Numbered from the stretch's first letter, positions 7,901 to 27,100 are shown. The stretch: 64,000 nucleotides of DNA from a virus (IMGVR_UViG_3300032223_000428:12580-76579); one strand, 5' to 3'. The notes: generated from the letters alone by a model not told the origin. Made by a program: numbers and translations.

Positions 7901-10900
7901 ATGAACCTGTCCAGTATATGCTGTAACTGTGCTCTTTTGTGTTATTGAATCAGTAGCAAACAGTGGCTCATTATAACCTTGTGTTTGAGAAAGATATAAT
8001 GCATCTGTTGAATCTGCTGCTATGTTTGCATATCCAACACCTAATAATGCCAAAGTACCTAGAGCACTTCCTTGAGGATTGCCAATTATACTAGAGTAAT
8101 ATGCGAAATTACCAGAATTGTATACATTAATTAAATTAATGCCATTTAAATATGCTGTTGGGTAAACCCAATCAGTTCCTTTGTAAAATCTTATTGCATA
8201 TCCAACACCTGCAGTAACTGTCGCCCCAGAAACATTACTAAATCCTTCAATCAGAGTACTCTGAACTGCATCACTGCTTGTAATATAAAGAGGTTTAGAA
8301 GCCAACAGTGTTGTTGGTGTGGCAGTTACACTATTAGAAGCTAACTGCCATAATTGAATTGATCCTGCTGTTGTTCCATTACCAACAGCACCAGCACTAG
8401 GAATAATAATTGAACCAAGTTGTCCAGTTTTTGGAGCAATGAATGAAATACCCCATCCATCAGTTAGGTTTCCAGGAAATACATAACTAGAATAATTACC
8501 AGCACCAGTTCCAAGGTCATACGCATTAACTGCAAAATTTTCTGCTGCTAATCCAAATTTTGGAATAGCTCTAACAGAAGAATCTAATGCAGATCCTGCT
8601 TCTGCATCTGCTGCGTAATATGTGCTAGCTGCAACTACATCAATATCAGTTGCATAGGATTCTTCTGTAGAATTTACAGTGAACCTAAAAATATTATTTG
8701 TATCTGTTGATGGAGCAAACCATGTACTTCCATTATTTGCTATTGGAGTATATACAGATCTTAAATACCAATATATTGGTAAACCATAGAAGGATCCACC
8801 TGTTAATATGTTATGATAACCAACAGCATCATGTCTATAAAGACCTAAGTAAGAAGATGCAGAAGAAGACCAATCTGAACCAGCAGTAACTGTAACTGCA
8901 TATGCAACACCAGAAGTTAGTGATAGATTAGCAGAAGAAAAATCAATATTTACTGGTACATATGCATAAGGATAACCAGTTGTTTTAGAAACAAGTCTAA
9001 AACCCACATTAGTATAAGAAGTTGTTGGCCATGCACCAACTAATGCCTCCTCAGAATACACACCCCATAAAGTAGGAAGAAGCGGAAATGAACCATCGGG
9101 GAGGGTAATGCCATATCCACTAAAACTTCCACGTAAATTTGCTCCAACCTGTATATCAATTTGAGATGTATTGTTTTCATAGAACACTGCTTCCCAAAGC
9201 AGTGTTGGAGAACCAAGTGTGCCAACAGTATTAGCAGTTCCTTCAAATACAATACGATATGTTCTATTTGGAGCAGTACCCTCTGTTCCATAATATATAC
9301 GTTGTGCAGAATTATCTGTAGAAGATATGCAAATTTTTGGAACTGCTGGGTTTGCTGCATCTACCGCAACATATTGAGTGGCACCAGCACCAAAAGTTAA
9401 ATAACTATTAGTCCCAACAAAAACTGTGCTATAAGAATTACCAAGATAATTTACACTCCATGGTAAAGAAAGTGTCCAGTATCCATCATCATTATTACCA
9501 GCAGTTGGAGTTGTGCTAGAAGTTAAAGAAGCTGCGCCAAGTAAACTATTCGTGATAGATGACATCGATTGTATTGGCGATGGCAAATCATTTAAAGAAA
9601 AGTTTCTAGATGCTAATAATGTAGATGGATTACCAGTAAGAGTATTGTTATTTAACTGCCACAGTTCAACTTTACCTGTAGAAATAGGTGGGGTGCTAGA
9701 AGATATACTATTGTTAATTCTGTATGCATTAATTTGAATATTTGAAAGAGTCTTAGTTTTATTTGCAATAAACTTTAAACCCTTACCATATCCACCACTG
9801 GTAATTGGTTCACCAATAGCTGCTTTTGGATATGTTCCAGTTGATATAGATGTAACAATAGTATCCAAGAATGGAGAAGTATTGTTTATGTATGCACCAG
9901 CAGTATTTGTTTGAGATAATGATTCAGATGCTGTTACAGTTTCAGTTATAGGAATAGCATTGATAGCATTTTCTACATCAACAGCAGTAGATGCATATTC
10001 AATAGTCATAATAGGGCTATTTTGGTATGTGGACCACAAAGTTCCACTAGCAATAGTTCCGCTTGCGCCTATTGGCGTTGAACTAGTAGCATAATAAATA
10101 TAATAATTAGAAGAATATTTTGCAAACTCTTGATACCACTGGTCAGAGCTGGTTGTTGGATTACTAACAAATAATAATCCACCACTAGTCGCATAGTTTC
10201 CAGTATTTACCCAATCACTGCCACCAGCAAGTAATATTGCATATGATGTTCCATTAGTAAGAGATGCACCAGAAACTGTGGAAAAATCAAATAATGGCGA
10301 ATAACTTCCATTTACATAACCACCATTTATGTAAAATGGTATTGATGCAAGTAATGTTGAAGTAGCTGTAGCTGTACCAGGGGCAGCGGCAAGTTGCCAT
10401 AATTCTACTGCACCTGCTGTTGTAGTTGAAGAAGTTAAACCACCATTTGGGAATGCCTGTGCAAGTGCTACTTTCCCTAATTGTGCAGTTCTAGAAGCAG
10501 TGAATGCAATACCATATTTTTGATTGGCATACAGAATTTGAGCATTACCTCCGCCAAAAACGCTTCTTACAAAATCCCATGAATCAAATAACGCATTACC
10601 ATCATCACCATTGATTACACTTTTTTGATATCCTAAAAACGATTTATAAGTTGTTGAAACATCACTAGCATACAAACCTTCTAAAACAAATGCTGGCACA
10701 AATAAATCTTGTGAAGTAGTTACTGTTCCAGATTCGTTTATTGTTTGATTAGATGATAATCCAGAAAGAGAAGAATCAGAACTAGAACCTGATTCTGTTA
10801 TTGTGTATGCTTGATAAATTACGCTTGCGGCTGCGCTGGCTGCTGCTGAGGCAGACTCTTTGATTACACTACCACGTGATAATGGTAATGCACTTAATGG

Positions 10901-10930
10901 TGCTGACGATAAGGGAGAAAAACCTAACAT
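1925..10930 (-). CDS. Giant (3001 aa) repetitive fibre/adhesin-like virion protein
   Basis: T/S/E-rich 20-aa ITETG shaft repeats, six LWQL-containing beta modules, three GWYR..GxQxExGS carbohydrate-binding-like domains; within the structural region. Confidence 0.75.
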   Translation of the reverse strand: MLGFSPLSSAPLSALPLSRGSVIKESASAAASAAASVIYQAYTITESGSSSDSSLSGLSSNQTINESGTVTTSQDLFVPAFVLEGLYASDVSTTYKSFLGYQKSVINGDDGNALFDSWDFVRSVFGGGNAQILYANQKYGIAFTASRTAQLGKVALAQAFPNGGLTSSTTTAGAVELWQLAAAPGTATATSTLLASIPFYINGGYVNGSYSPLFDFSTVSGASLTNGTSYAILLAGGSDWVNTGNYATSGGLLFVSNPTTSSDQWYQEFAKYSSNYYIYYATSSTPIGASGTIASGTLWSTYQNSPIMTIEYASTAVDVENAINAIPITETVTASESLSQTNTAGAYINNTSPFLDTIVTSISTGTYPKAAIGEPITSGGYGKGLKFIANKTKTLSNIQINAYRINNSISSSTPPISTGKVELWQLNNNTLTGNPSTLLASRNFSLNDLPSPIQSMSSITNSLLGAASLTSSTTPTAGNNDDGYWTLSLPWSVNYLGNSYSTVFVGTNSYLTFGAGATQYVAVDAANPAVPKICISSTDNSAQRIYYGTEGTAPNRTYRIVFEGTANTVGTLGSPTLLWEAVFYENNTSQIDIQVGANLRGSFSGYGITLPDGSFPLLPTLWGVYSEEALVGAWPTTSYTNVGFRLVSKTTGYPYAYVPVNIDFSSANLSLTSGVAYAVTVTAGSDWSSSASSYLGLYRHDAVGYHNILTGGSFYGLPIYWYLRSVYTPIANNGSTWFAPSTDTNNIFRFTVNSTEESYATDIDVVAASTYYAADAEAGSALDSSVRAIPKFGLAAENFAVNAYDLGTGAGNYSSYVFPGNLTDGWGISFIAPKTGQLGSIIIPSAGAVGNGTTAGSIQLWQLASNSVTATPTTLLASKPLYITSSDAVQSTLIEGFSNVSGATVTAGVGYAIRFYKGTDWVYPTAYLNGINLINVYNSGNFAYYSSIIGNPQGSALGTLALLGVGYANIAADSTDALYLSQTQGYNEPLFATDSITQKSTVTAYTGQVHTSSQAPFLSTFSTPHGNGGYSVWGTTGGNLSCGRTFIAGFTGPVSYLEFDLINTYGGVRPAPVQTGYAQLWQLASNSISALPNTLLGQIAVMPSIATTSGGPVRIDFSSLNITLTSGVGYALAITAGSDWDLTNTQYLAVYANSDNLYIPYNSTPITRSANTGIWAIALVSEPYQFNMAVYSTYNTADVTDSSQVTTPFVGEQAAASDTLNTIRGQNSSIGERVEEPIFDMSPELSYTGTPRAGLEYAAGQTFISNYTGLVKTISLTMFASGSSDSTNPGYFQLWQLASNSISAIPSSLLLSYPVYVSDIRSSYISGGDQRVVVDVSSLGVSVTSGVAYGLVFLNGSDWNTTGGPSTVCGPRGRYIGISNFTTDYEGKTKSFSSSYPAASNTWYVNTTLQNDYLYPWTITGYVPSDTNTFTISAASAATEVGYSLDTSASLKRIPGAIVETSSGIAPLFNDYQFSTISGDANSMNANSRTGWGFTATTTGQLGKVSWVRSSTGGSGNYSNGNANPSVSNGALELWQLAGAPGTAATILVASIPVAATDFPSTGPAPLWDFSNISGAVLVAGISYAVIFSTGSDWNYTSTKTWSIQTQNSNGTDPAAWFGYRVGKTYYYGTGTVGTTTGLTSGFTWDTTTNPYINPVPPLSIEYSTNTSETPISGLLINKNITENSNTTATDSGIGNIPGAGETVYENVGITATDTKTTTVAFVSDRTETGTATETETSQANFYPVITENTGISATESGTQSTSGAVNTITETGSAIEAEDRTLTATRDVTETGTAAETEDRTLTATRDVTETGSANETEDRTLTATRDVTETGSANETEDRTLTATRDVTETGSANEQESNIITTSQSVTENTGISATDSGSNIISTTQVLTETGTATENETSQADFYPAITETGTATETESNKSVQYSSNLETTRKNIYANSDIFGSGWSVNNGTLTSTALTTDPFGGNGAYRLAEDTLNTIHREVYTTPHIAGTVYTLSVYVKADTRSKFVFFHEEGNSANRAGLQLDLIAGTKINYFTGTGTITSSTLTNEGNGWYRASFTFTATTNLSGVTHTFRLIDNLGNFTYTGDGTSGLFIYGPQFEIGSLTAYQANNTLDSDVGIITTNQSTNETGNASETETQTVFQVQYNTETGTATETETSQANFYPVITETGTGNESNSGSNSTNQSTNETGTASDSETTSLSALNQLWEYTSTNIIKYPNDISASPWTTYNSTLSTNVAVAPDGTQTADKIIGNSGVTIRKSVYYGGAYLTQNTTYTYSVYLKQAGFTNATIWFDIPFANIGPNGYQGAGALINLTDGSTSGTTPTVTTVTSVGNGWYRCSVTGTTKLPWQFGVAGMIPANLQISLGDANGVGTATGDGTSGIYVWGSQLELGSSVTAFVDPNETVTQTNVITTTQSLTETASASDSEISQANFYPAITETGTSADSPVGNWTTSSNSSETGSASETESTQIGFVSSLLENTNKNLFYVPSDLSNSIWIKAGSSTITSGQTDPNGDTTAFLLTANLAFSSIYNITPGILPGTYTVSVYVKYGTSTYFTIVNESTTGVDPVAHSATFTMSGTPVLQGASNATATLTSVGNSWYLATMTYTLIAGATFRPKFWVGSYSGTAFTGQTVYLWRPQVELGSSVTAFVDPNETVVQSSIITTNQVLTETGNASDSETSQANFYPVITETGTGNESNSGSSTTTQTRTETGSAAESESSSAAFVSSNTETGSASETETNIITTNQALTETGNASDSETSQANFYPAITETGNVSDTDSASAVDLGNIVETLLGQDLSTVQTAFISSIQEALNAIETDFGNNVSNRSAAEILSAVDSSTGLPFYAVNINELLNAVVSAVTALPAFITETGSLTAAQFATQLATAGILEQINANETELAQLILTSYVTEITVAGESTVVWIFYPMDYELVSSRPSMLIDSYSDEIYFDDIDVFYLDASKIMADIDVTVDQIYIDNIDVIYGNIALIDSAIDDEIYI
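5361..5625. repeat. 60-bp coding tandem repeat (~4.4 copies; VTETGSANETEDRTLTATRD)
   Basis: Consecutive 60-nt lines 5341-5640 are nearly identical. Confidence 0.95.
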
Positions 10931-13913: not shown

Positions 13914-14495
13914 TTATACTGAAGCAGTGTAAGTTACGTTCAATGTATCGCCAGAAGCAACAGCTTTGTTACCACCAGTGAAAGAACCAGCTGAGTAAAG
14001 AATACCACCACCACCGTTGGAAGCAGTACCACGAGCCTGAGTTGAGCATAACAATGTACCAGCAATAGTAGCAGTACCAGTGATAGCGAATGCAGTTGCA
14101 GTAGTTGCTTTAGAACCAGCAGAAGCAGATGACCATGATGGAGTTGCTCTGTTAGTTGCGGAACCACCAGCAGTATAAGTAACAGAAGCTGCAATTTCTG
14201 ACCAACCAGAGTGTGATGCTAAAGTATCACCAGCAGCGTATGTTGGAGTTGTACCACCATCAACTAGACCTAGATACCATGCTGCAGTATATGCAGAACC
14301 TGCTAGGTATTTATCTAGTAAGTCGTTTTTACCAACTGTTGTTACTAAGTTTGTATAAGTGTCTGTCCACTTTAAATTACCTTCTGAATCATAGCATGTT
14401 GCTGTATAAACACCAGATGCCTGAAGCATTTCGTCCATGCTGTTTCCAGTAGAAATACCACTAGAAACTACAGAGTTCGCATTTACTTGTTCCAT
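13914..14495 (-). CDS. Phage tail-associated protein (homolog of 30569..31036)
   Basis: NLVTTVGK...GDTLNVTYT motif shared with NLVMTVGK...GDSIAVTW. Confidence 0.65.
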   Translation of the reverse strand: MEQVNANSVVSSGISTGNSMDEMLQASGVYTATCYDSEGNLKWTDTYTNLVTTVGKNDLLDKYLAGSAYTAAWYLGLVDGGTTPTYAAGDTLASHSGWSEIAASVTYTAGGSATNRATPSWSSASAGSKATTATAFAITGTATIAGTLLCSTQARGTASNGGGGILYSAGSFTGGNKAVASGDTLNVTYTASV

Positions 14496-14513
14496 TTAAA
14501 TCTCCTTGTTGAA

Positions 14514-14840
14514 TTAAGCGAATTGTGCTCTTACCTGAAATTGAAGTGTATCATAAACTGTCTGTTTAGTTCCAGAGTAATTTAACTCAACTTCGCCTTC
14601 GTAATACCCTGGATCCACATTTAATGCAGTCCCAGAAAAATTAAAAATTACTATCCCATCAGATCCACCATTTGGCTTAGTGCATGCGATTGTAGAAAGA
14701 ACGGTAGTAGAACCTTTCGCTCTAAAATACATCTGAACTGTTGCCGCAGATACATCTATTGGAAGACCAGTAGCATGTTTAAGGGTGAGTCTGATATAAG
14801 GCAAATTATCGCCCTGAACCAGTTTAATCCTTTCAGCCAT
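14514..14840 (-). CDS. BppU N-terminal-like Ig-fold adaptor protein
   Basis: IKLVQGDNLP..L...PID.S.ATV...G.Y.GEVE.......T pattern. Confidence 0.6.
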   Translation of the reverse strand: MAERIKLVQGDNLPYIRLTLKHATGLPIDVSAATVQMYFRAKGSTTVLSTIACTKPNGGSDGIVIFNFSGTALNVDPGYYEGEVELNYSGTKQTVYDTLQFQVRAQFA

Positions 14841-14852
14841 CTGTACTCCTTT

Positions 14853-14859
14853 TATTTAG
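14853..14859 (-). promoter_or_regulatory. T4-type late promoter (CTAAATA) for the fibre cassette
   Basis: Intergenic [C/A]TAAATA; same motif precedes many structural genes. Confidence 0.65.
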
Positions 14860-14892
14860 TTACTCTTTATTTATAAACGATTGTATTTGTAA

Positions 14893-15933
14893 TTAATCGT
14901 TAAGAATATTTTGATAGTTTTTAAGAAGAAATAACCACTGTTGATTCGTAAACTGTAACACTGATGTTCCTTTAGATTTGTTTTTGGAGTAGTGTTCCTC
15001 TCCGAACAAATCTCTAAGAGCCTCTCTCATCTGCCATCTATGAGTACTAGAATCACCACGAACTTTAATAAAAGGTTCATTAGTAGTCATGGACCAAAGT
15101 TGAAAATCATCTGTAGCGAAAAATGGAATTATTCTCTCTGCCTTTTCATTATGCATCATTGTTTTATGATCGTATAAACCAGTATACCAGTTTAAATTAA
15201 ATAGACAATACCATCTTAAATCATAGATCGTTTCGATTTTCCTATGAGATGCTTTAATCATAGGATCGAAAAACTCTAACAATTCTGGATTAATATGTTT
15301 CTCATAGGATTCATAAATCGTATCTTTATTACCTAATTTGTAGTGAAACGCCATAGATCCATCTGTATCGAACATGTCATCAGTTGGACCAAATAAATGA
15401 TTGGCACACATTCCACTAACGAAGATACAATCTATTGCATTAAAAGAATGCACATTAGGTGGAGGAACCTCTATTCTATATTTAAATTCATCTTTAAGTC
15501 TTCTATCAAATAAGTCACCAGATTCTATTAAAGAATTAAATGTACCCCAGACTCTAACTTGATCTGGATCATTTGAATAATATTTTAGAAGAAATAAAAT
15601 AAAAGTGCTATCAAGTCCTCCAGACCAAAGAACATGAATAACTTTGTTTTGATTTAATAACTCTTTGGCTCTTTCTTCACAAACTTCCATAAAAGTTTTA
15701 TTAAATGGTTTTATGGCAGGAAGATGATTAGATTTATCAATGTTTAAATAATGCGGTAAAATACCAGATCTATCGTAAACCATATTACTAGAATTTAATC
15801 CTAGTTTATTATAAGTTTCCAATAATGAATCATCAAAATCTTCAGATAAAAATGGTACCAATACATTACGATGTGTTTTTATTAAAGATGGAACCTCTTT
15901 ATAATTATAATATAAAATGTCTTTTTTAAGCAT
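14893..15933 (-). CDS. Asparagine synthetase C-domain-like ATP pyrophosphatase (PP-loop), no GATase domain
   Basis: LWSGGLDS PP-loop; FVSGMCANHLFG matches the AsnB SGEGADELFG position. Confidence 0.7.
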   Translation of the reverse strand: MLKKDILYYNYKEVPSLIKTHRNVLVPFLSEDFDDSLLETYNKLGLNSSNMVYDRSGILPHYLNIDKSNHLPAIKPFNKTFMEVCEERAKELLNQNKVIHVLWSGGLDSTFILFLLKYYSNDPDQVRVWGTFNSLIESGDLFDRRLKDEFKYRIEVPPPNVHSFNAIDCIFVSGMCANHLFGPTDDMFDTDGSMAFHYKLGNKDTIYESYEKHINPELLEFFDPMIKASHRKIETIYDLRWYCLFNLNWYTGLYDHKTMMHNEKAERIIPFFATDDFQLWSMTTNEPFIKVRGDSSTHRWQMREALRDLFGEEHYSKNKSKGTSVLQFTNQQWLFLLKNYQNILND

Positions 15934-15944
15934 AGAATCAAACT

Positions 15945-15967
15945 AAAAGTGGGGTTAAAACCCCACT
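15945..15967 (-). terminator. Intrinsic terminator-like hairpin
   Basis: AGTGGGGTT-TT-AACCCCACT followed by TTT on the minus strand, between the DctP-like and AsnB-like genes. Confidence 0.65.
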
Positions 15968-15985
15968 ATAATATATTTTTTATAA

Positions 15986-16918
15986 TTAAGATTTAAGTTT
16001 ATCAATAAGTCCTTCAGAAAATACATCATTGTATTTTCCATAAACAGAAGATGTCGCCTGTTTAATTTTGTCTTTTTCTTCTTGTGTTAATTCAACTATT
16101 TCAATTCCCTCAGTTTGACATGCAGTTTTAATAGCTTCAAGATTTGGCATAGAAACGAATGCAGCATTAGTAGAAGCAGTTAATAATGCTTCTTTAGTTT
16201 CATCATCTAATTCATCAAAGAACATTTTATTAATTACAATGCAACCTAGCGATAGACTATGTTCAGTATCACTAACATATTTAAAAGATTTACTCTTTAT
16301 TAAAGGTAGTAAATTAAAATAATCTATTTCTGCAGAATCAATAATATTAAATTTTGCGGAAGAAACAATATTCTGATATTCGATATTATGGACTGGAGTA
16401 GATTCAATAGACTTAAACGTCTCATTAGAAACAGAGTTATTTCCTGTTTTAATTTTTTTATCTTTAAATGATGTTAATGTATCGCATTTAACTTTAGAAG
16501 CTATTACATTAGCTCCATTAGAAAACGTGAATTTTAATGCTTTGATACCAACTTTATTTTCTACACCAACCAATAGGTCAGATCCAGCTTCTCCATTTAA
16601 TACAGTATAAGCATCTGAAATGCTGTCGAAAATAAATGGTAATTGCAATGCATCAAGATCTTTATTGATATCTGCCAAGACTTCAGTTGGCAAAATACCC
16701 ATAGTAATATCACCCTTACCAATTAGGTGTAGGATATTACGTGGATTGCTGGATGAGTCTGGTGCATATTTCTCAACATATTCAGAAGAAGACATTACTT
16801 CAAAACTGAGTTTATCACTACACTTTTGGTCTACTTCTTTAACGAAAGAATCTGTAACATTAAAAGATACATCGAATGGATCCACAGAAACAACCCATTT
16901 TACTTTTTTAATTTCCAT
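15986..16918 (-). CDS. TRAP transporter DctP-like solute-binding fold protein, no signal peptide
   Basis: G.I.M...LQLPFIFDS, KKIK.....S.E.FK.I...PV, INK.FFD.L..E.K.AL motifs of DctP. Confidence 0.7.
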   Translation of the reverse strand: MEIKKVKWVVSVDPFDVSFNVTDSFVKEVDQKCSDKLSFEVMSSSEYVEKYAPDSSSNPRNILHLIGKGDITMGILPTEVLADINKDLDALQLPFIFDSISDAYTVLNGEAGSDLLVGVENKVGIKALKFTFSNGANVIASKVKCDTLTSFKDKKIKTGNNSVSNETFKSIESTPVHNIEYQNIVSSAKFNIIDSAEIDYFNLLPLIKSKSFKYVSDTEHSLSLGCIVINKMFFDELDDETKEALLTASTNAAFVSMPNLEAIKTACQTEGIEIVELTQEEKDKIKQATSSVYGKYNDVFSEGLIDKLKS

Positions 16919-17210
16919 TTTTTATTTCTCCTAATTTACTAGTATCGAACGACCAACTGCTTGTTTGTTGTTCTATTGTTCTTTGAGCGATCATTATCTT
17001 ACTATTTATAAAGTATTTTAGTATGTCCATTGTAAACTGTTCTCTATTTTCAAAACATTCCAATGGAATCAAAGTATCTCTAGACTCATAATTTTTGTTA
17101 TTAGAGTCGTAATAAAATACATCTTTTATACAAAAATATTCAGTAGTGTGTTTTAATATTCTAGGATACTGTCTTATTTCAACCATGTATCCTTCAAAAA
17201 ATGAACTCAT
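16908..17210 (-). CDS. Hypothetical protein (100 aa)
   Basis: Overlaps both neighbours (translational coupling). Confidence 0.6.
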   Translation of the reverse strand: MSSFFEGYMVEIRQYPRILKHTTEYFCIKDVFYYDSNNKNYESRDTLIPLECFENREQFTMDILKYFINSKIMIAQRTIEQQTSSWSFDTSKLGEIKNGN

Positions 17211-18598
17211 GCAACCACCGAAATTGGTATAATTTTTCTTGGTTTTCTAACATTAGATGGTTTACCATTAGTCCACCAGAATATATCTTTCCTATCTTCC
17301 CTTAGTGGACCTTCGATATATTCTGGAATGCACCCAGTAATTTCTTCTATTGCTATACTAAACATAACGATATTATCACTAAATGCATTATCGCATGATG
17401 CATCCCATAGTGGTCCAGAAAGAAACATACATGCACCTTTACATATATGAATAACAGGACAGTTAGGGCACTCTTTTCTATCACTCCAATGAGTGGCAGT
17501 ATTTAATTGAGAAGAATTTAAATCAGAGATATGTCCTATCTTATGAGACATTCCTGCAGGATTATTAGAAACTGCGCTAACATTCTGACATGTCAAAACA
17601 TTACCATTTAAGTCTAATGCAATAGAATCTGATTTATCCATACCACACTTTTGTGGTAAAGATTCTATTCTAGAACCATTCTTAATAGAATTTAAAAATG
17701 TATTAAATTTACTGCCAATTACAGAAAATCTGCTGGCACCACCACGTCTTAATTCATCTAGAGAAAGATTTCTAAATTTATTATCCTCTTCCCCATCCAA
17801 TAATGAATTGGCAAGACCACCTTCATCATAAGCATCAACGAACGCACCTTCACCAATAGTTAAAAAATCACAGTATTCTTTTCCAATATTATCAGTAATA
17901 AATTTGATAAAAAATTCTTGGATTTTTGTTCTGCTTATATTTTTAGAGTTAATCATAGAATTAAAACTAAAACGACGTTTAGGTGCCAATCTTTTATAAA
18001 GATCTAAAATGGCTTCTTTTGATACTGGATCGTCAAAAGGATCTGGTCCACGAACTGGTTGTCCTGGACCATCATGAGAAACTGCAATACCAAACCCTAA
18101 AGATTCTAGCCAGTCATTCTTTTCTTTATCCAATAAACTACCATTAGTGATAATACCCATATTGCAATTTGGATATTTTTGTTTAATCGCTTCAGCTAAA
18201 GGTTTTAGTGTTTTCCAATAAACAAATGGTTCACCACCCCAAAATTCAAAGGTTGTATTTTTTCCTAATAAATCATCTCCTCCCTCAAACCATGAGGACA
18301 TATTTTCTACGAAAGGGAGAACATCATCGGGATTGGTTTGATCGGCATGAGGAACGAAACGCTGGTTGCAATAATCACACTCGAAATTGCATGAAAGACC
18401 TAGCTGTATTTTTACAGTCTTTAGGTCTTTCTTCCCATGTTCTATTTTTGCTGGAGCCAGAACATCTGGTTGTGTCATTACATTATCATAAATTGGAGTT
18501 CCATCTTCCCATGTTAATGTACTAACACTACTATCATAAATTATCACTTTATGTTTTTGTTCTTTAACATCCCATGATTTAATTTCAAATTTTGCCAT
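17207..18598 (-). CDS. Radical SAM/SPASM-domain protein (anSME/peptide maturase-like)
   Basis: CNFECDYC (CxxxCxxC), WGGEP, ITNG, and C-terminal SPASM cysteines KCG..TC..CPNC.....C...C..C. Confidence 0.92.
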   Translation of the reverse strand: MAKFEIKSWDVKEQKHKVIIYDSSVSTLTWEDGTPIYDNVMTQPDVLAPAKIEHGKKDLKTVKIQLGLSCNFECDYCNQRFVPHADQTNPDDVLPFVENMSSWFEGGDDLLGKNTTFEFWGGEPFVYWKTLKPLAEAIKQKYPNCNMGIITNGSLLDKEKNDWLESLGFGIAVSHDGPGQPVRGPDPFDDPVSKEAILDLYKRLAPKRRFSFNSMINSKNISRTKIQEFFIKFITDNIGKEYCDFLTIGEGAFVDAYDEGGLANSLLDGEEDNKFRNLSLDELRRGGASRFSVIGSKFNTFLNSIKNGSRIESLPQKCGMDKSDSIALDLNGNVLTCQNVSAVSNNPAGMSHKIGHISDLNSSQLNTATHWSDRKECPNCPVIHICKGACMFLSGPLWDASCDNAFSDNIVMFSIAIEEITGCIPEYIEGPLREDRKDIFWWTNGKPSNVRKPRKIIPISVVA

Positions 18599-18643
18599 AT
18601 AATTTCCAAAATTGGCACTCTACCATAGAGCACCTCATAAATC

Positions 18644-18650
18644 TATTTAG
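18644..18650 (-). promoter_or_regulatory. Late promoter (CTAAATA) upstream of the rSAM gene
   Basis: Overlaps upstream stop codon; followed by leader hairpin GGTGCTCTA-TGG-TAGAGTGCC. Confidence 0.5.
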
Positions 18651-19567
18651 ATCGTTTTAGTGAATGTGGTTTGAGCAAGCCAAAACTTAAATCCAATTTT
18701 AACTGAAACTGTATCTCCAGAATCTAATCCTGTAGTTATAACTTTAAAAGAACCAGTTCCATTAGTTAATGGAATTTTTGTTTTTGGCAAAAATCCAGTA
18801 TTTGTTTGTAAATATAAAAAATCAATTCTTTCATCGGTTGTTACATTCACAGTAATAACATCACCAGAAATACTCGAGGTCGTGTTTATCTGAGCCATTA
18901 ATTCTTCTGGAGGAGATATAAATTCTTTTAATAAAGATAAACTAGTATCAACTTCTATAGTATGATCAGCGAAGCCAGTTCTATCTACAATATTATCACC
19001 ACCTGGTCTAACAGTTTTTGGTGGATAATAATCTCTTGTGTCAGATATCGCCATTGGTTTTTGAATAACCAAAATAATGTCATCAGAAGTAGGATTATCA
19101 CTTGTGACAAAGAAATTAAATAAAGATTTACCACCAAAAATATTATTCACACCATTCCCATATGATAAAGAATATGCATTATAAATTTTATCAGATGGAA
19201 TTGTGGTAGAATTAGTAGGAAGTAAAGATTCTATAAAATCCTGATCAATTCCCCATGCTGTTTGTGCTGGAGATTTTAGTAAAGGAGTGATATCAATTAA
19301 AAAATCATAAACTTTTAAATTTTCTGTAGTGTTAGTTAATACAATTTTAAATAAATTATCTTGTACGTTCTGTATTTCCCATTTAAAATGTATTGGAGTA
19401 GTCTCCCATAAAGGGTGATCTCTTAAGTCATCTTGTATTTCTTGAGAAAACTCTGATGCGTTATCCCAATCTAAATTTGGATATAATCCATGTTTCCAAT
19501 TTAAACTAATAGTATTATTAACAAAAGAATATTTTCTACTATCTGTTAGTCTTAGTGCGTATTTCAT
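18647..19567 (-). CDS. Hypothetical protein with a C-terminal Ig-like beta domain
   Basis: 306-aa ORF between tail fibre and rSAM; AGGA RBS. Confidence 0.7.
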   Translation of the reverse strand: MKYALRLTDSRKYSFVNNTISLNWKHGLYPNLDWDNASEFSQEIQDDLRDHPLWETTPIHFKWEIQNVQDNLFKIVLTNTTENLKVYDFLIDITPLLKSPAQTAWGIDQDFIESLLPTNSTTIPSDKIYNAYSLSYGNGVNNIFGGKSLFNFFVTSDNPTSDDIILVIQKPMAISDTRDYYPPKTVRPGGDNIVDRTGFADHTIEVDTSLSLLKEFISPPEELMAQINTTSSISGDVITVNVTTDERIDFLYLQTNTGFLPKTKIPLTNGTGSFKVITTGLDSGDTVSVKIGFKFWLAQTTFTKTI

Positions 19568-19576
19568 GCATATTCC

Positions 19577-20905
19577 TTAACAATTACAATTGCAGTTAAT
19601 ACAATTTAAATAATGGTGATGTGGGTCAAGACCTGTGCCAGTATCTAAATGTTCTCTTCCATAACAATTATATGAGTGAAAGAAATGAGAATATTGGCCA
19701 TGATTACCAGATCCAGCACCACGCCCCCAGACACTAACGAAGCTGTTTACCTTTGTATTGGCTGCTACTGCCATATCATTTGTGAACTGTGATAGATGTC
19801 CTGGTCTACCTTGAATACCACCCCATGGTGCATGTGAAGAATGGTGAGTAAAGTCACTACTATGTGCCGCATGAGAATAAGAACTATTGAAGGCATGACT
19901 GACATTAGAAACAATAACAGCACCAGTGTTACCCTGAACAGATGATACTGGAACAGAAACGATTACGTTACCAGTCGCACCATTAACAGATTGAACTGGC
20001 ACGTTAACAATAACAGCACCAGTGTTACCCTGAACAGATGTAACTGGAACAGAAACGATTACGTTACCAGTATTACCCTGAACAGTTAATACGTTTGCAT
20101 TAATAGTTGGGTTACCACCAGTACCATCACCATTCTGAACAGTAATACCTGATCCTGCAGCTATAGATCTTACCGTTGCAGTCGCTGCGCCAGTTCTAAT
20201 GTAAATACCGTTAGACGAAACACTAGAAAGACCAGCAAGGTTATTAGCATATGCTTGGACATCTGTACCAATTGTTAAACCTAGACCAGTACGAGCAGTT
20301 GCTTGATCGGCAGACGCTTCCAATCCACGCATAAATGCAGAAGAAGTATATGTACCAGCTGTTCCTACCCCAGTAAAATATGGAACAGCACCAGCAGCAG
20401 AAGATACACTGGCCAGTGCAGCAAGTTCAGCATCATAAGCCTGAACGTCTGTGCCAATTGCCAAACCCAATGCAGTTCTTGCAGCAGGGGCATTATTAGA
20501 TCCAGTACCACCAGAGCCAATAGGTAGAGCAGTTGTAAGTGTTGTAATAGAACCACTAGTAATTGCTGCTACGCCAGTAAATGTACCAGAAAAATTCGTA
20601 GCTGTAATGGTGTTACCAGCGAAGTTACCAGAACTATCACGAACTACAACAGAACTTTTATTGACACCTGCAGGTAATGCAGAAGATGTATCTAATCCAT
20701 CTAGAAAGTCAGCGTCTAGAAGAGAACCTGTACCATCAACGGTAATAAGTTTAGCCAGTACATCTGCAGCAGTATAACTAGCAGCAGTAAGACCTGTTTG
20801 AAGAGCTGTATTGAGGGCTGAGAAGTTATTATCAACTTCAGTATTAGTAAGAGGACTGCCCTTAGTACCTCTTAACGTAATGGTTGCAGCGGATATATTT
20901 GCCAT
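19577..20905 (-). CDS. Tail fibre protein with His-rich, Asn-Cys-repeat C-terminal tip
   Basis: ITLRGTKGSPLTNTEVDNNF N-terminus, LDAD.LDG, ARTALGL.IGTDVQAY and SVQGNTGAV fibre repeats; ends YLNCINCNCNC. Confidence 0.82.
   Translation of the reverse strand: MANISAATITLRGTKGSPLTNTEVDNNFSALNTALQTGLTAASYTAADVLAKLITVDGTGSLLDADFLDGLDTSSALPAGVNKSSVVVRDSSGNFAGNTITATNFSGTFTGVAAITSGSITTLTTALPIGSGGTGSNNAPAARTALGLAIGTDVQAYDAELAALASVSSAAGAVPYFTGVGTAGTYTSSAFMRGLEASADQATARTGLGLTIGTDVQAYANNLAGLSSVSSNGIYIRTGAATATVRSIAAGSGITVQNGDGTGGNPTINANVLTVQGNTGNVIVSVPVTSVQGNTGAVIVNVPVQSVNGATGNVIVSVPVSSVQGNTGAVIVSNVSHAFNSSYSHAAHSSDFTHHSSHAPWGGIQGRPGHLSQFTNDMAVAANTKVNSFVSVWGRGAGSGNHGQYSHFFHSYNCYGREHLDTGTGLDPHHHYLNCINCNCNC
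19910..20090. repeat. 48-bp-period coding repeat (VPVxSVQGNTGAVIVS, ~4 copies)
   Basis: ccagtgttaccctgaacagatg and actggaacagaaacgattacgttaccagt recur at 96-bp spacing. Confidence 0.85.
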
Positions 20906-20922: not shown

Positions 20923-21150
20923 TCAATCTTTTTTATTCATAAATTCGATAATTAATGATTTTATCTCTTTTAGATCATTCTTTATATTATTTATGTCTTC
21001 TTCATGCTGAGAAATTTGACGATTACGATCTTCAGCGATACGTCTTCTTTCCATATATTCTTGATATTCCGTTTGACTAGTATTGATGATAGCCCCAGTC
21101 GAAACATCTCGAACTAGGCTATCATGACCAACAACTTTTAAGTAGTCCAT
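20923..21150 (-). CDS. Small coiled-coil protein conserved after DUF4815 genes in T4-like phages
   Basis: KV.GH..LVRD.STGAIIN motif; start overlaps upstream stop (TAATG). Confidence 0.75.
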   Translation of the reverse strand: MDYLKVVGHDSLVRDVSTGAIINTSQTEYQEYMERRRIAEDRNRQISQHEEDINNIKNDLKEIKSLIIEFMNKKD

Positions 21151-24100
21151 TATGGGCAAGCAATAAGTCTAAAATCTTTAATAATTGGGACTGCAGCACT
21201 GTTTGCAGACTGCATTACTAGTTTAACCACAACAGTATCAAAAGGAATCATATTATTTAATGTATAGTCAACATCATAAAATGTGTTGTTTCCATTATCT
21301 ACTTTGGTTAAACCAGTTCCATCAGCTGTAGCTAAAGTATATTTAGTTGTGTCTAGTTGGGAAGCATCACCCAAACATGTTTTATAATATACCTTAACGT
21401 CTGCCTCACTTGGGCAATTTGCACTCAATTTAATTCTAGTGTATGTAGAAGAATTTGCAAATTTTACAGGTGTGGTTACATATTTACTAATACTATTGCT
21501 ACCAACTGGAGCGATCTCGTCAAAGAATAGTTCTTTCAGAGAGATAGTTGTACCAGAAGCTGCAGCTTCCGAAGCCATAACTGCCTCTGTAGAAGCAGTA
21601 GATGATACGTTAACTGTTGCTGTTGTTCCATTATCAGAGAAACCAGTAACTATCCATGTTCCATTATTAGAAGTAGTTGTAGCACTGGCAATAACAATGT
21701 ATCTACCAATACCAAGTCCTGACAATACGCCTCTGGCTGTTGAGTTTGTAGAAGTAATAGAAGATGGATTACCAACATATCCAAGAAGAGCACTACCATG
21801 ATAAGCAGTACCAAATGTATGAGATGGAGCACTAGTACTACCAGTTCCACCGATCAAACAGATGTATAATTTATTACCATAATAATACTGAGTTCCTGCA
21901 GTCAAAGATTGAGAACCAGTTAAAGTTAACAATGTTCCAGTAATGGCAAAGTTAAATGCACCAGAAGAACCTATGTGAACTTGTTTCAAATCTAATGCAG
22001 CCACGTTAGTGTTTGCTTCTGTTGGCCAGTTTAATTTATTTGAAATTAACTGAACGCTAGAACGTGCAGTATCTATAACTGGAGAGACTGAATCATTTGT
22101 AGTGGAAATCTGTGCAGTTAATATTAAAGATGGAGAACGAGTTGAAGGATCTAATTCTGCAGCAATAAGTTTTGTCTGTTTAAAGATATTATCTTGTTTC
22201 ATCAAAACTGATGTAGAAGTATCTGTAGAATATGCAGTTTGATTACCATCCATTGATGTACCAGTAGTTGTTGTAACAGAATAACTTACTTTATTATCAG
22301 AGAAAGCCTGAACTTCCATTGTTGGGTTTAAAATATCATAAGTGATATTATGTGTGGCTCTCAATAAATTACCACCAGCATATCCAGTACTAGTTGCATT
22401 AGTAGCAGTTGTTATTGTATAACAATGCATATCTACGTTGCTAACAGTTTTACTTCCACTAGACAAAGTTGGTGCAGAGCATATTTCTGTGTATGGAATT
22501 CCATTAAATGTTGTTAATGAAATATATGTTAATACAGCAGTACCATTAGTTGCTTGGCCAACAGTATGAGTTGGCGCAGAAGATCCAGTGGTTCCAGCAG
22601 TTGTTACCTGATAAACTTTACCACTTGATATTACATAAGAGTTTAATGTAACTGCAGTAGATGCTGCCCATGTTGTCGATCCATATGTAATCCATGGCAC
22701 TGTAAGTTTAACAGATGATGCTGTTACAGGACTGAAACCATGGTTAGGGTGCCAGACTCTTACTGTGTTGCTTCCACTAACAGTCTGTAGAGGATCGCCA
22801 TAAAGTTGATCATATGGTAATACGTTATTAACAAATGATACGTTGGCGATCGAATTTGTAGTAAACTTAGCACGATATAAAGTAAATTTAATATCTTGAT
22901 TTTGATCTGGAGTCCATGTTGAAGCATTTTGAGACTTAAACATTACACCAGCATATGGTTGCTCAGAAATAGTTCTACTAGTTCCAGGAATCTCGTCACC
23001 CATATTAGAGATCCAAACTTTATAATTGTTTGAATCTGATTGGATAACGAAACAATATTCTTGACCATCCATCACATAAACAGGTGCATCAAATTTAAAA
23101 TTAGTTGCAACATTATAGTCAGCGTAAGAATTTCCATCCCATATTGTTACTGGATTGTATCCAGAAGCTGTAGGATCTGCACCAGCAACTGGGGCATTAA
23201 CCGAATCTGATTTCAATGATACTGTACTAAATGGAAGAACATATTTTCCTGGAGTACCATTAACTATTTCACGAATAGAAACAGTGACAGGAATATTTGC
23301 ATCTTTAGTTGCAAAGAAAATATCAATAGATGTTAAGAATGCTCCACCTTTATTTTGAACCAAGAATGATTGTGCAAGTGGATCATACCAACCAGTATCA
23401 GAAATAACTGTTGTAACCCCACCACCATAACTTCCATCTTTAGATAAAGTTTGGTACATATTAGGATTATTTGCATCATAATTAATCTGTTCTTGAACAT
23501 ATTCTGGAGATCTAATAGATTGAACTACAGATTGAACAGTCTGTAGTGTTCCAGTAGCATCATACATGCCCATAGCACGTGATGTATAGTTTCCGAATGC
23601 TGTAGAAGAATCAACTAGTTTAAGTTGAGACTTGCCAGTTCTGAAACGAATAGATTCAGTATTTGGAATATAGTATAAGAAATTAAGTTCACCAGCCTGA
23701 TTAGTGGTTAAAGTAGTATTAACTGTTGTTGATATTACAGTACCAGTAGCACTATTATTAAGAGTACCAGTGATAGTTTCGTTTGCACTGAATGTTCCAA
23801 TAATATTGACTAAATCTAAGGCATATGAAGTTGTACCATCAGAATTTAATATTGTATATTTTCCAACAACTACAGCAGAAGCTGTTTGTGCCTGATTATT
23901 GATGACATCACCTTTTGTTAAACAAACCTGTGTATCACCAGCTATTCTTCGCTTAGCATCTGTACCTGCACCACCAACATTTGTTGTAGTATCAAATAAT
24001 TTATGTGTAACCAGTTTGGCAGAAGAAGTTGAGCCAGTTGGCGTATAAATCATCGTTGTTGTTGGAGTGCAATAGTCAGAAACTGCAATCTCATTAAAAT

Positions 24101-27100
24101 ATGCATAGAATCTTGTATTTGGTTTTAACCCTTTGGCTTGAACCAATAAATTTCTAGATCTTACATAAGGAATCATTGCTGTAGAAAGAACCTTATCGCC
24201 AACAGTGACTCTATCTGTTTTAGGAATAACAGATGTTTTAGTTCCTGTTCTAGATTTAAATCCAGTTTGTGACCATGTAGTTACACCTGTAGTAGATGTT
24301 GTTAGAGATCTAAGAGCCATTCCACCATTGGCTGACCAATTTCCACCTAGATTATTTAATTGATCTCTACTTGTACTATTTTGATTATATGATTGAATCG
24401 TTGATGGTGCAGTAGAAGATTGAACGCCATTCCAATGGTCATTCCATTCTCCCCAAATAGGGAATCCATTATTTGAATCAACCCAATTTTTAACAGCGGT
24501 ATAATTATCAATATTCTCAACCAATTCTGGCGCACGAGCAGTATCAAACCAATCATCAGATGGTGGATTAATTTGAACAGTTCCTAAGAATGTAAATATT
24601 GCAAATGGATTAACATTCTCAAGTCTAGATGCATATCCTTGTTTAATAAATTCTTGTGATGTATATGGTAAAGTTATAACATCACCAGTTAATTGATATC
24701 CTGAAGAAGTTCTAGCAGCAGTGTTAGAATTTTGTTCAATTAAATCAACATTATGGGATGTGTGCGCTGGACGTAATAAGTTATTCTTCATATCAATAGA
24801 ACAAACATAGTCTTTTGACGTAGTATTTGCTAATGAAGAACCACCGAAATTGTCAACGACAAATCCGTTTTTCATTCTATCAAGACCAGTACTATCTGTA
24901 ATTTTAAGTGTACTAGTTTCTGCTTCTAATAAAGATAAAGAAGTATAGTATTCTAAGTTATCAATACGTTTTTCAAGTTTACCAATATCACGCATTGTGT
25001 AGCGTTTGTTATCGACTTTAATGACAGCTACGCTAGATGTAGTAGTACCAAATGTATATGGTTCTAATGTTAGATTATAAAGAACCATCGCATTGGCTGG
25101 TGCTGTTGGCTCTCCTGGAGAAACAGATGAAACACCAAGAACATCAAAGAATGTTCCATTTTTATCAATAGAAATTTTATCTTTTCTACCAAGATAATAG
25201 CTAAAGTCTAATGTTGTATATTCACCTCGTTTTGGTGGATTAGACCATGAAGAGCCAGTACCAGCAAATACTCTAGTAGAAGCATTAACAGATTTATTGG
25301 CAACTCTTGGACGGAAGTCCAAAGAGTCTCTCAATAGAGGAGGAATTTGTTTATAATCTATCGAATAAGAATCTCTATCAAAATAATCTCCAGCACCATG
25401 TTCAAAATATTCATATTGAATTTGAATTGGATTTGATGGAGCTGTATATGAAGGTAATAGATTTAATCTACCCAAATCATAATGAGTAGTTCTTTGTCCA
25501 TTATCAAAACTGTAACGCTCAGAGATATCTTGTGTATAATAAGAAGGGTCTTTAGAAGCTGTACCACTAAAAGACAATGATGGAGCCATCTTAATGCTTA
25601 TAATTCTAAACACATCAGCTTTATCTAATAATAGAGTTGTAGCCTGTGCAGTATCAGCAGTAATAAAGGTATCATGATCTTTTGTACCATCACTAGAGAT
25701 TGGTGATACAGTTGTGGTTAATGATTTAGTCTTTTCGAATCCTGATCCACTTTTCTTAACTGCAGCAATAACTGAATATGTTCCAGCTGATGGGACAGTT
25801 ATGGTTACGTTACTTCCAGAAACAGAAATTTTATCATATGTAATATTCTGTATACTTCCATCAGAATCTTTAGTTACAATATAATTGTCCTGATCTGCAG
25901 CTGGAGCAAATGTTCCAGCGACACTTAAACCAAGAGATGTAGTTGCTGTTGTGACACTGGTAAATTTAACGTATGAATAGTAGTTTAAGTTATTAACACC
26001 ACCACTACCAGAAGTTCTTACATTCTTAACAGAAGAATATGGAAGTGGGAAAATTAATGATGTATTTGTTGCTTCATTAATAGCAGTACTTGCAATTTGC
26101 ATTGCACCACCACTAACTGTAATTGCTGAATCAACAGTTATTGAAGTTTGGCTGTTAATTGCTGTAACTTTACGATAACTAGAAGCAGAGCCATCAGTGA
26201 TTAAAAGATAATCATTAAGTTTAACATCAGTTTGGAAAGATGTTCCAGTACCAGTTAAAGTGGCAGAAGCAGAAGCAGTGACAGATCCAGTTATTTTAGT
26301 TAATATAGGTTGGATATCTGCTGTGAAGATAAGAGTGCCACCTGGATTATAGTATATTGATTTTACGTTTCTGCTAAAATCATAACCAGAATACATCTGA
26401 ATATCAAATAAACCCAATTTGTAAATCGATGTGCTACCATATGGAAGGACACTTTGCCATTCCATAAAACGAACACGTGCGGTTCCAACTGCAGTTCCTA
26501 GATTGGATGCTGTTGTAGTTCCTCTATATGATGATCCAGATAATCCATTATACAATGTAACAATACCAGCACTGTCTACTGGTGGTGGGTTATACACGTT
26601 TGTTACATTAATGTAATTTCCGATTGTTGGTGCCAATACTGAACTTGTTGCTTGTTCATAATCTCTGGCTTTTGGCACTGTTAAGTATGATGTTCCAAGT
26701 TTTTCAATCTCAACACCTCTAACATAAGCCTTACCAGCTTCTAAACCAATAGCCAATTTTGTTTCATCACCATCTAAATTAATACCACGATTGTATAGTG
26801 GATTTATATCATAGAACCATGTGATAGTACCATCTGATGCATTACCAGATGTATGAGTTGGAGCTGTACTACCAGAAGTTGCGCTAGTTCTAGCTGTATA
26901 AGTTAAACCAGCATTTGTTACAACATCACCAATTATATAAGCAGTATTCTGTGTCCACTGCCCACGATTATTATTTCTATGTTCACGAACATCAATGTTA
27001 AAATCACGAACAGTGTAATCTCCAGATTCATCATAAGTACGACGTGCAAGTTCGACATCAATATCTGAATAGATCTGATTTAATGGATTATCAGGAACAA

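Follow-up and report, generated by a model that had tools for sequence, protein, structure and literature searches.

A putative fibre-tip maturation module in an uncultured myovirus: (Asn-Cys)n-tailed tail fibres are linked to a radical SAM/SPASM enzyme

Introduction

What might a radical S-adenosylmethionine (rSAM) enzyme be doing among the tail genes of a bacteriophage? The question is raised by a 64,000-nucleotide stretch of viral DNA (IMGVR_UViG_3300032223_000428:12580-76579, hereafter the window), which belongs to a 76.6-kb IMG/VR virus record of an uncultured myovirus, estimated to be about 47% complete. An earlier note on this DNA had singled out six co-directional genes and suggested that they act on the tip of a phage tail fibre in the manner of enzymes for peptides that are ribosomally synthesised and modified post-translationally (RiPPs). 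The listing of open reading frames (ORFs) bore out these six genes and their positions on the minus strand, in the order tail fibre, 306-residue protein, rSAM enzyme with a SPASM domain, 100-residue protein, DctP-like protein and AsnB-like PP-loop protein (Table 1). We therefore set out which of these genes belong together, what the fibre and the enzyme look like across their families, and which chemistry the pair could support. On balance, we think it probable that the window holds a fibre-tip maturation module, in which a fibre with an (Asn-Cys)n tail is accompanied by a partner protein with an immunoglobulin (Ig) domain and by a dedicated rSAM/SPASM enzyme that forms thioethers in the tail.

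Two-way linkage of Cys-tailed fibres and rSAM enzymes

Viral contigs, together with prokaryote genomes limited to one for each species, supplied about 180 loci around homologues of the window rSAM enzyme (35-77% identity). Of the dereplicated loci, 108 extended 4.5 kb or more upstream and served for the forward comparison; a strictly defined tail has at least three x-C units in the last 12 residues, or is fused to a Hint domain. In 103 of the 108 loci, an ORF with an (xC)n tail lies upstream in the same direction, in 100 of them by the strict definition, compared with 8 of the 4,219 other ORFs in the same loci. Variant Cys-rich ORFs were present in three of the five exceptions, namely a tail-Hint fusion (L133), a small ORF in which NCNCAC and NCNCDC occur internally (L146) and an ORF with 15 Cys (L182). 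For the converse comparison, viral contigs were scanned for NCNCNC followed directly by a stop codon; 28 such tails were in frame and had at least 5 kb of downstream DNA, and an rSAM gene lay no more than 5.5 kb downstream in 25 of these. The expectation that homologues of this enzyme would sit beside fibres ending in (NC)n was thus upheld in both directions. These statistics rule out chance adjacency or a moron gene, and on genomic grounds they make it a well-founded proposal that a structural protein carries a fused RiPP-type core.

Clustering of all neighbouring ORFs reduced the proposed six-gene system. The fibre, the 306-residue family and the rSAM enzyme were conserved, whereas the 100-residue, DctP-like and AsnB-like genes proved to be specific to one clade. 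The conserved unit is therefore a triad, consisting of an (xC)n-tailed fibre, a member of the 306-residue family and an rSAM enzyme with seven SPASM Cys. In ORF045-048 of Ralstonia phage RSP15, for instance, a fibre fragment ending in NCQCGN is followed by a protein of the 306-residue family, one more gene and the rSAM gene. Recurrence of the triad in more than 100 phages and prophages suggests that the carriers probably modify their host-recognition fibre tips chemically.

Distant homologues were also found in cellular genomes. In a Bacteriovorax metagenome-assembled genome, a 61-residue peptide ending in ACACGGPCACGGPCY (L183:1976-2161) is encoded between two rSAM/SPASM genes, and the product of one of these is a homologue with 36% identity to the window enzyme; the cluster looks like a classic RiPP locus related to the phage system. 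Another distant rSAM homologue (L159) is encoded beside an ABC exporter. Such RiPP settings support the idea of a RiPP-type core that became attached, in phages, to a structural protein.

The Asn-Cys tail of the fibre

The window fibre matched PHROG tail-fibre families (phrog_24210, 4.9e-13). Alignment of 29 homologues revealed a conserved N-terminal shaft of about 335 residues and a hypervariable, indel-rich C-terminal region of about 70-100 residues, the sole invariant part of which was the terminal Cys tail. Residues 1-335 of the window fibre contain neither His nor Cys. Its final 107 residues contain 14 His and 5 Cys, each Cys being preceded by Asn, and the protein ends in NCINCNCNC immediately before the stop codon. 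The earlier note's description of a C-terminus with NC repeats and many His is accurate for this fibre; as a conserved trait only the Cys tail stands, the His-rich stretches being restricted to a sub-clade of the fibre family.

Across 125 unique tails, the residue preceding Cys was Asn in 409 cases, Ala in 46, Cys in 45 and Asp in 42, and 90 of the tails had Cys as the exact C-terminal residue. A DNA tandem repeat or slippage was considered as the origin of the tail and rejected, since its codons vary (AAT/AAC and TGT/TGC) and just two hexamers repeat; the tail is therefore a motif at the protein level. It is carried by unrelated fibre families, phrog_24210 in the window and phrog_8469, phrog_8443 and the collagen-like phrog_5073 elsewhere. 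The carriers include the myovirus RSP15, the siphovirus JWF and prophages of Burkholderiales and alphaproteobacteria.

Some fibres do not end at the tail. In gp028 of Achromobacter phage JWF (L002:6670-8121), NCNCDCNCNCSC is fused directly to a Hint domain, and the genes for gp029 and the rSAM enzyme gp030 follow. A Hint domain directly after an (N-C)n tail was also found in a prophage of Burkholderia paludis MSh1 (L140:4778-6307) and in a further locus (L133:4199-5329). Self-cleavage of these Hint/intein-like autoprocessing domains (C-F-P-A-G-T...) would leave the tail as a new C-terminus, possibly by a thioester route. The Hint-fused variants suggest that a free C-terminus has to be the final state of the tail, and together with the 90 of 125 tails that end in Cys they indicate that this free end appears to matter.

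A different arrangement was seen in two loci (L025, 3799-4608; L061, 2868-3651), where each of three tandem ORFs of 81-87 residues terminates in a tail of the NCNC type (NCNCNC, NCNCACNC or NCNCNCNC). Two genes of the 306-residue family, 2-oxoglutarate (2OG) oxygenase genes and the rSAM gene are located downstream of these ORFs, which look like a set of precursor-like substrates or like small subunits of the fibre tip.

The radical SAM/SPASM enzyme

The enzyme matched the Pfam profile Radical_SAM (PF04055; 29.6 bits, cut-off 29.5), phrog_1802 (2e-62) and the SPASM domain model TIGR04085 (35.2 bits, cut-off 27). Its CX3CX2C motif (C70, C74 and C77) and seven SPASM Cys (C318, C337, C377, C380, C386, C390 and C402) were invariant among eight diverse homologues with 43-72% identity, in line with the earlier claim of a complete rSAM/SPASM enzyme. 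The SPASM region, with CX13GX4C (C318-C337), C377-x2-C380-x5-C386-x3-C390 and C402, agrees with the pattern CX9-15GX4C...CX2CX5CX3C...C. Only about 60 residues precede the core as an N-terminal extension. The family is large, with at least 2,903 clusters of homologues at E<=1e-20.

Among curated profiles, the best match was to the ranthipeptide maturase PapB (NF047865; 50.1 bits compared with a cut-off of 340), to which distant homologues of the window enzyme scored 64-73 bits. The next neighbours, also below their cut-offs, were the geopeptide maturase, QhpD, DynA and the anaerobic sulfatase-maturating enzyme (anSME), with CcpM likewise among the best. The best neighbours of the window enzyme and its distant homologues are thus Cys-crosslinking or peptide maturases (PapB, geopeptide, QhpD and CcpM). 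The anSME profile TIGR03942 scored 39.1 bits compared with a cut-off of 349, its alignment covering residues 66-390 and thereby the full length of the enzyme; the JWF homologue is annotated as an anSME. By sequence, the nearest solved chains were 8vpo (E 1.2e-13), followed by CteB (5wgg) and the anSME 4k36, all of them distant.

The invariant SPASM Cys of the window enzyme number seven, rather than the eight that characterise anSME. In CteB, auxiliary cluster I (Aux I) has an open site, as has also been proposed for AlbA, while the auxiliary clusters of anSME are fully ligated (PMC6231123). As the window enzyme conserves seven Cys for its two auxiliary clusters, Aux I is implied to have an open site, as in CteB.

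Comparison with known maturases

The closest parallels are PapB with its substrate PapA (freyrasin) and CteB with CteA (SCIFF; PDB 5WGG), in which an enzyme with a C-terminal SPASM domain likewise acts on a Cys-rich sequence. PapB gave the best curated-profile match of the window enzyme and CteB is its second-best solved relative, and the seven-Cys SPASM pattern fits the open Aux I site of CteB (PMC6231123). In the PapB reaction, Cys is joined to the carbon that is alpha to a carboxylate, which can be the C-terminal one (PMC12373016). In contrast to the PapB and CteB systems, the window cassette gave no Pfam match to a RiPP recognition element (RRE) and contains no leader peptide, protease or exporter, and the score to PapB lies far below the cut-off (50 compared with 340 bits). 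The presumed core forms the C-terminal end of a 300-700-residue fibre of the virion, its motif is (N-C)n rather than CX3D or the SCIFF type, and the genes are encoded by a phage, within a tail gene block. With no RRE detected and no leader, peptidase or exporter, this is not a canonical RiPP system.

A second parallel is the streptococcal radical SAM RiPP (RaS-RiPP) pair NxxcB/NxxcA. NxxcB forms a thioether between Cys and the C-beta of the Asn that lies three residues upstream, and tolerates Ala, Gln and Asp as acceptors (PMC9389541). The N-C-N-C tail of the window fibre contains overlapping N-x-x-C units (N437...C440 and N439...C442), and the acceptors Asn, Ala, Gln and Asp overlap with the pre-Cys residues Asn, Ala and Asp of the tails. 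NxxcA is a short, quorum-regulated peptide, as opposed to the structural protein found here.

Precedents for a SPASM enzyme acting on a folded or foldable protein are provided by QhpD with QhpC and by anSME with the sulfatases, and both enzyme profiles matched the window enzyme weakly. QhpD introduces Cys-to-Asp/Glu thioethers into a dehydrogenase subunit. Both systems differ from the present one in that the scores lie far below the cut-offs, the substrate motifs are others, and neither a virus nor a C-terminal repeat is involved.

The 306-residue partner protein

Of 156 dereplicated loci, many of them truncated, 112 encode a member of the 306-residue family, always between the fibre and the rSAM gene and often in duplicate. 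In some loci it is replaced by a 233-residue family resembling JWF gp029. The protein contains no Cys, and it diverges faster than its neighbours: in one related locus (L004), the 306-residue protein is 39% identical to its window counterpart, compared with 59% identity between the fibres and 76% between the rSAM enzymes.

In the AlphaFold model (predicted local distance difference test, pLDDT, 85.9), residues 225-306 form a Big_1/intimin-like Ig domain (intimin D1: Z 9.4, root-mean-square deviation 2.4, 79 residues aligned). A Foldseek search of the model against the PDB returned nothing at E<=0.001, and a VIA-wide comparison recovered this C-terminal domain only, with no fold matched for the N-terminal 220 residues. 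Co-folding of the protein with three fibre tips (residues 333-442) gave a score of 0.01 against a mark of 0.32; as the run had no controls, the result speaks neither for nor against binding.

Fibre accessory proteins, such as the T4 gp38/gp57-type chaperones and the T2 tip adhesin gp38, occupy the same position directly after the fibre gene, and the rapid divergence of the 306-residue protein is a further likeness. Self-cleaving C-terminal chaperone domains find a parallel in those homologous fibres that carry a tail-exposing Hint domain. No sequence or fold similarity between the 306-residue protein and known fibre chaperones was found, and we know of no fibre system with a radical SAM enzyme.

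Clade-specific accessory genes

Three genes follow the rSAM gene in the window. The first, for the 100-residue protein, was present in 25 loci, invariably beside the DctP-like gene. The protein had no match in Pfam, PHROGs or NCBIfam, and its ESM Atlas matches (score 0.77) were uninformative, the pLDDT of its own model being 0.46.

The DctP-like protein matched PF03480 with 95.5 bits (cut-off 23.4; 4.8e-27) and NF037995 with 85 bits (cut-off 50). Its N-terminus aligns with the mature starts of the solved binding proteins 4p47 and 4pf8, hence it has no signal peptide, and the solute-binding fold without a signal was correctly described. For the membrane partners DctQ and DctM, neither PF06808 nor PF04290 had a match in the 76.6-kb record, which is about 47% complete. 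At the position of the carboxylate-clamp Arg, the window protein has Lys (KKIKT), compared with Arg in 19 of 19 relatives. It is also an outlier within its family, with about 36% identity to relatives whose flanking rSAM and AsnB-like proteins are 53-76% identical to those of the window.

The assignment of the third gene to the AsnB type held at the level of fold and not by sequence. The Asn_synthase profile PF00733 reached 13.2 bits compared with a cut-off of 21, the match being limited to the SGGLDS PP-loop, and weak matches were obtained for 6 of 12 homologues; the SGGxDST motif was invariant in all 12. In the VIA comparison, the top folds for the predicted structure (pLDDT 83.4) were TsnB9 (Z 12.3, 239 residues aligned), beta-lactam synthetase (12.3), asparagine synthetase (11.9) and carbapenam synthetase (11.5), with the remaining PP-loop enzymes at Z<=9.8, and Foldseek retrieved asparagine synthetase at E 2.3e-4. 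The protein, of 346 residues, lacks the N-terminal nucleophile (Ntn) glutaminase domain, and the alignments start at residues ~142-204 of the targets, thus within the synthetase domain only.

All three genes were restricted to the clade of the window fibre, in which they occurred together in 18 of the 24 loci with enough downstream DNA. Most other clades carry one to three 2OG-Fe(II) oxygenase genes (PF13759 and PF13640) at the accessory position, and the trio never co-occurs with these. Besides the oxygenases, a 288-residue family resembling RSP15 ORF046 was seen at the accessory position in a few loci. Examples of genes at this position lie at L017:6207-8001 and L001:8078-8944. A role of the AsnB-like protein in converting encoded tail Asp to Asn was considered and, as a simple model, rejected, Asp-Cys occurring in 1 of 22 tails from AsnB loci and 37 of 69 tails from 2OG loci, a comparison that is confounded by phylogeny.

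The trio might be an unrelated auxiliary metabolic or host-takeover cassette that lies beside the triad by accident. Its absence, whole or partial, from 6 of the 24 loci and from nearly all other clades would suit this explanation, and it means that the trio is not essential to the core function; the G+C content is also the lowest of the window here (0.306 at 16-18 kb compared with 0.42-0.43 at 10-14 kb). We nevertheless consider an accidental neighbourhood unlikely, since the accessory genes still adjoin the rSAM gene where the order is permuted (L020, L068 and L012/L013), lie inside the virion gene block and are mutually exclusive with the 2OG oxygenases at the same position. A distant PP-loop/AsnB-like homologue is, moreover, encoded near the rSAM gene of a Polynucleobacter locus (L144).

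Proposed fibre-tip maturation and its alternatives

Based on the linkage and on the profile neighbours of the enzyme, we infer that the fibre tail is the likely substrate of the rSAM enzyme and that thioether crosslinking is its most likely reaction. The N-x-x-C chemistry of NxxcB, the carboxylate handle of PapB and the open Aux I site lead us to propose that several thioethers are formed per tail. In the infected cell, the enzyme would bind the Cys tail of the fibre, and a tail thiolate would ligate the open iron of Aux I. The 5'-deoxyadenosyl radical would then remove a hydrogen at the alpha or beta position of a neighbouring residue, which is Asn in most cases, and the resulting C-S thioether formation would be repeated several times along the tail. 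The thioethers may link residues within one chain or between the chains of the fibre trimer, and the outcome would be a covalently stapled, redox-insensitive receptor-binding tip. The 306-residue protein would be an obligatory partner and might act in presentation of the tail, as an adaptor or chaperone, or else be a distal tip protein.

In the clade of the window, an optional second sub-module may consist of the 100-residue protein, a DctP-like protein that would bind carboxylates in the cytoplasm, and an AsnB-like enzyme for adenylation. As the DctP-like and AsnB-like folds both handle carboxylates, we speculate that it probably adds a carboxylate-directed step, for example adenylation followed by amidation or ligation, possibly at the free C-terminus.

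Several observations weigh against this proposal. A profile-based assignment of the enzyme to a SPASM subfamily, which the earlier note had envisaged, did not succeed: no curated subfamily cut-off was reached, and sactipeptide, ranthipeptide or cyclophane chemistry is thus not assignable by homology. An RRE or PqqD domain, likewise anticipated, gave zero Pfam hits at E<=0.1 in the rSAM, 306-residue and 100-residue proteins. The nearest solved chain, 8vpo, is cited in a paper on radical SAM (RS)-SPASM cyclopropyl synthases and not in work on thioether synthases. The accessory trio is incomplete or missing in the six same-clade loci mentioned above, and in most relatives an oxygen-sensitive rSAM enzyme is encoded beside O2-dependent 2OG oxygenases. 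Lastly, 3 of the 28 NCNCNC-tailed proteins had no rSAM homologue in the sampled 5-11 kb downstream. The tail may thus have a function of its own, independent of the rSAM enzyme in some phages (such as metal binding or disulfides), or the enzyme may be encoded elsewhere. These three proteins comprise 184-202 residues (L231:2672-3226, L236:11273-11881 and L260:5055-5663).

The needle of T4 gp37 contains His-x-His iron sites, and a Cys analogue of these can be envisaged. At the fibre's threefold axis, the (xC)n tail would then serve mainly to bind metal or to form disulfides, and the rSAM reaction on it would be other than thioether formation (for example, anSME-like formation of formylglycine from Cys, epimerisation or another C-H functionalisation). 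Alternation in a beta-strand would put all Cys on one face, His-rich stretches precede the tail in the window fibre, and the tail occurs in the three proteins without a nearby rSAM gene, while the alignment of the anSME profile over the whole enzyme and the annotation of the JWF homologue would fit a formylglycine-type reaction. We hold this explanation to be rather improbable, for the His-richness is not conserved in the family and the best profile neighbours are Cys-crosslinking maturases. An anSME-like reaction in particular is opposed by the profile score (39 bits compared with 349) and by the sulfatase substrate motif of anSME, C/S-x-P/A-x-R, which the tail does not fit. The fully ligated auxiliary clusters of anSME (PMC6231123) also stand against the seven conserved SPASM Cys of the window enzyme.

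It is very improbable that the true substrate is the 306-residue protein or a covalent junction between it and the fibre, with tail thiols linked to carbons of the Ig protein so that a fast-evolving distal adhesin becomes attached. In favour of this reading, the family is linked to the enzyme as tightly as the tail is, has a surface-type Ig domain, diverges faster than its neighbours and is often duplicated; against it, the JWF gp029-like family substitutes for the 306-residue family in some loci.

For the tail-thioether module, a wider reading may be formulated, which we regard as tenable with somewhat more doubt than conviction. Thousands of phages and prophages would staple (Asn-Cys)n fibre tails through thioethers by means of a dedicated rSAM/SPASM enzyme, with a second, clade-specific tailoring (AsnB-like and DctP-like proteins here, 2OG oxygenases elsewhere), which would make this a widespread and hitherto unrecognised class of post-translational modification of virions. 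The staples might join the chains of the trimer or the fibre to its Ig-domain partner, and a RiPP-like "warhead" would be built into a structural protein.

Full-text searches of the literature returned no description of an (xC)n-tailed fibre paired with an rSAM enzyme; a cyanophage rSAM enzyme for "antibiotic synthesis" found there proved to be unrelated. The new aspect would accordingly lie in the use of SPASM maturase chemistry at the C-terminal end of a fibre in the virion. If the proposal is true, phage receptor-binding proteins join the substrates of RiPP-type radical chemistry. A radical enzyme of the phage would then modify a fibre tip covalently, which is unreported in the literature searched and would be relevant to the ways in which fibres acquire stability or specificity. 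The clusters of homologues would then represent a large, recognisable SPASM maturase family (at least 2,903 at E<=1e-20), with a ready-made substrate motif in each. A natural maturase that acts on the C-terminus of a large folded protein would be useful for protein stapling, and dependence on host Fe-S clusters and SAM could affect engineered or therapeutic phages with such fibres. Two carriers, Ralstonia phage RSP15 and Achromobacter phage JWF, are cultivable, which makes direct testing possible.

Genomic context

The positions of the cassette and of the large structural gene upstream of it are collected in Table 1.

Table 1. Features of the fibre cassette and its upstream neighbour, in window coordinates
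Feature	Position	Strand	Basis or remark
Tail fibre, 442 residues	19577-20905	-	PHROG tail-fibre families; alignment of 29 homologues
C-terminal N-C-I-N-C-N-C-N-C tail, stop codon directly after	19580-19606	-	Proposed substrate ("core")
306-residue partner protein	18647-19567	-	Clustering of neighbouring ORFs; AlphaFold model
Radical SAM/SPASM enzyme, 463 residues	17207-18598	-	Pfam, PHROG, TIGR04085, Cys motifs
100-residue protein	16908-17210	-	Confined to the window's fibre clade; matches no family
DctP-like protein, tripartite ATP-independent periplasmic (TRAP)-type solute-binding fold without signal peptide, 310 residues	15986-16918	-	PF03480
Stand-alone PP-loop ATP pyrophosphatase, AsnB-type synthetase fold, 346 residues	14893-15933	-	SGGxDST motif; predicted fold
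2258-residue structural protein, upstream of the fibre cassette	21150-27926	-	ORF listing

A 78-residue virion protein (phrog_473) is also encoded upstream of the cassette on the minus strand. With the 6-kb cassette as nucleotide query, a search of the phage collection gave zero matches. The rSAM gene had been credited with a late-promoter motif of its own, and CTAAATA does lie 46 nucleotides upstream of its start. The motif was not enriched in the window, however, with 14 occurrences compared with 19.7 expected, and neither was TATAAATA, with 4 compared with 9.4 expected; a T4-type late promoter before the rSAM gene was therefore dropped.

ORF044 of Ralstonia phage RSP15 (L001:10301-15235), which is located immediately downstream of the rSAM gene of that phage, is homologous to the 2258-residue protein, with 29-34% identity in pieces, so that the neighbourhood is partly common to both myoviruses. 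Downstream of the window cassette, an ORF of 3001 residues occupies positions 1925-10930 on the same strand. The cassette (14001-20000) coincides with the G+C minimum of the window, and this low value may reflect a different origin or acquisition history.

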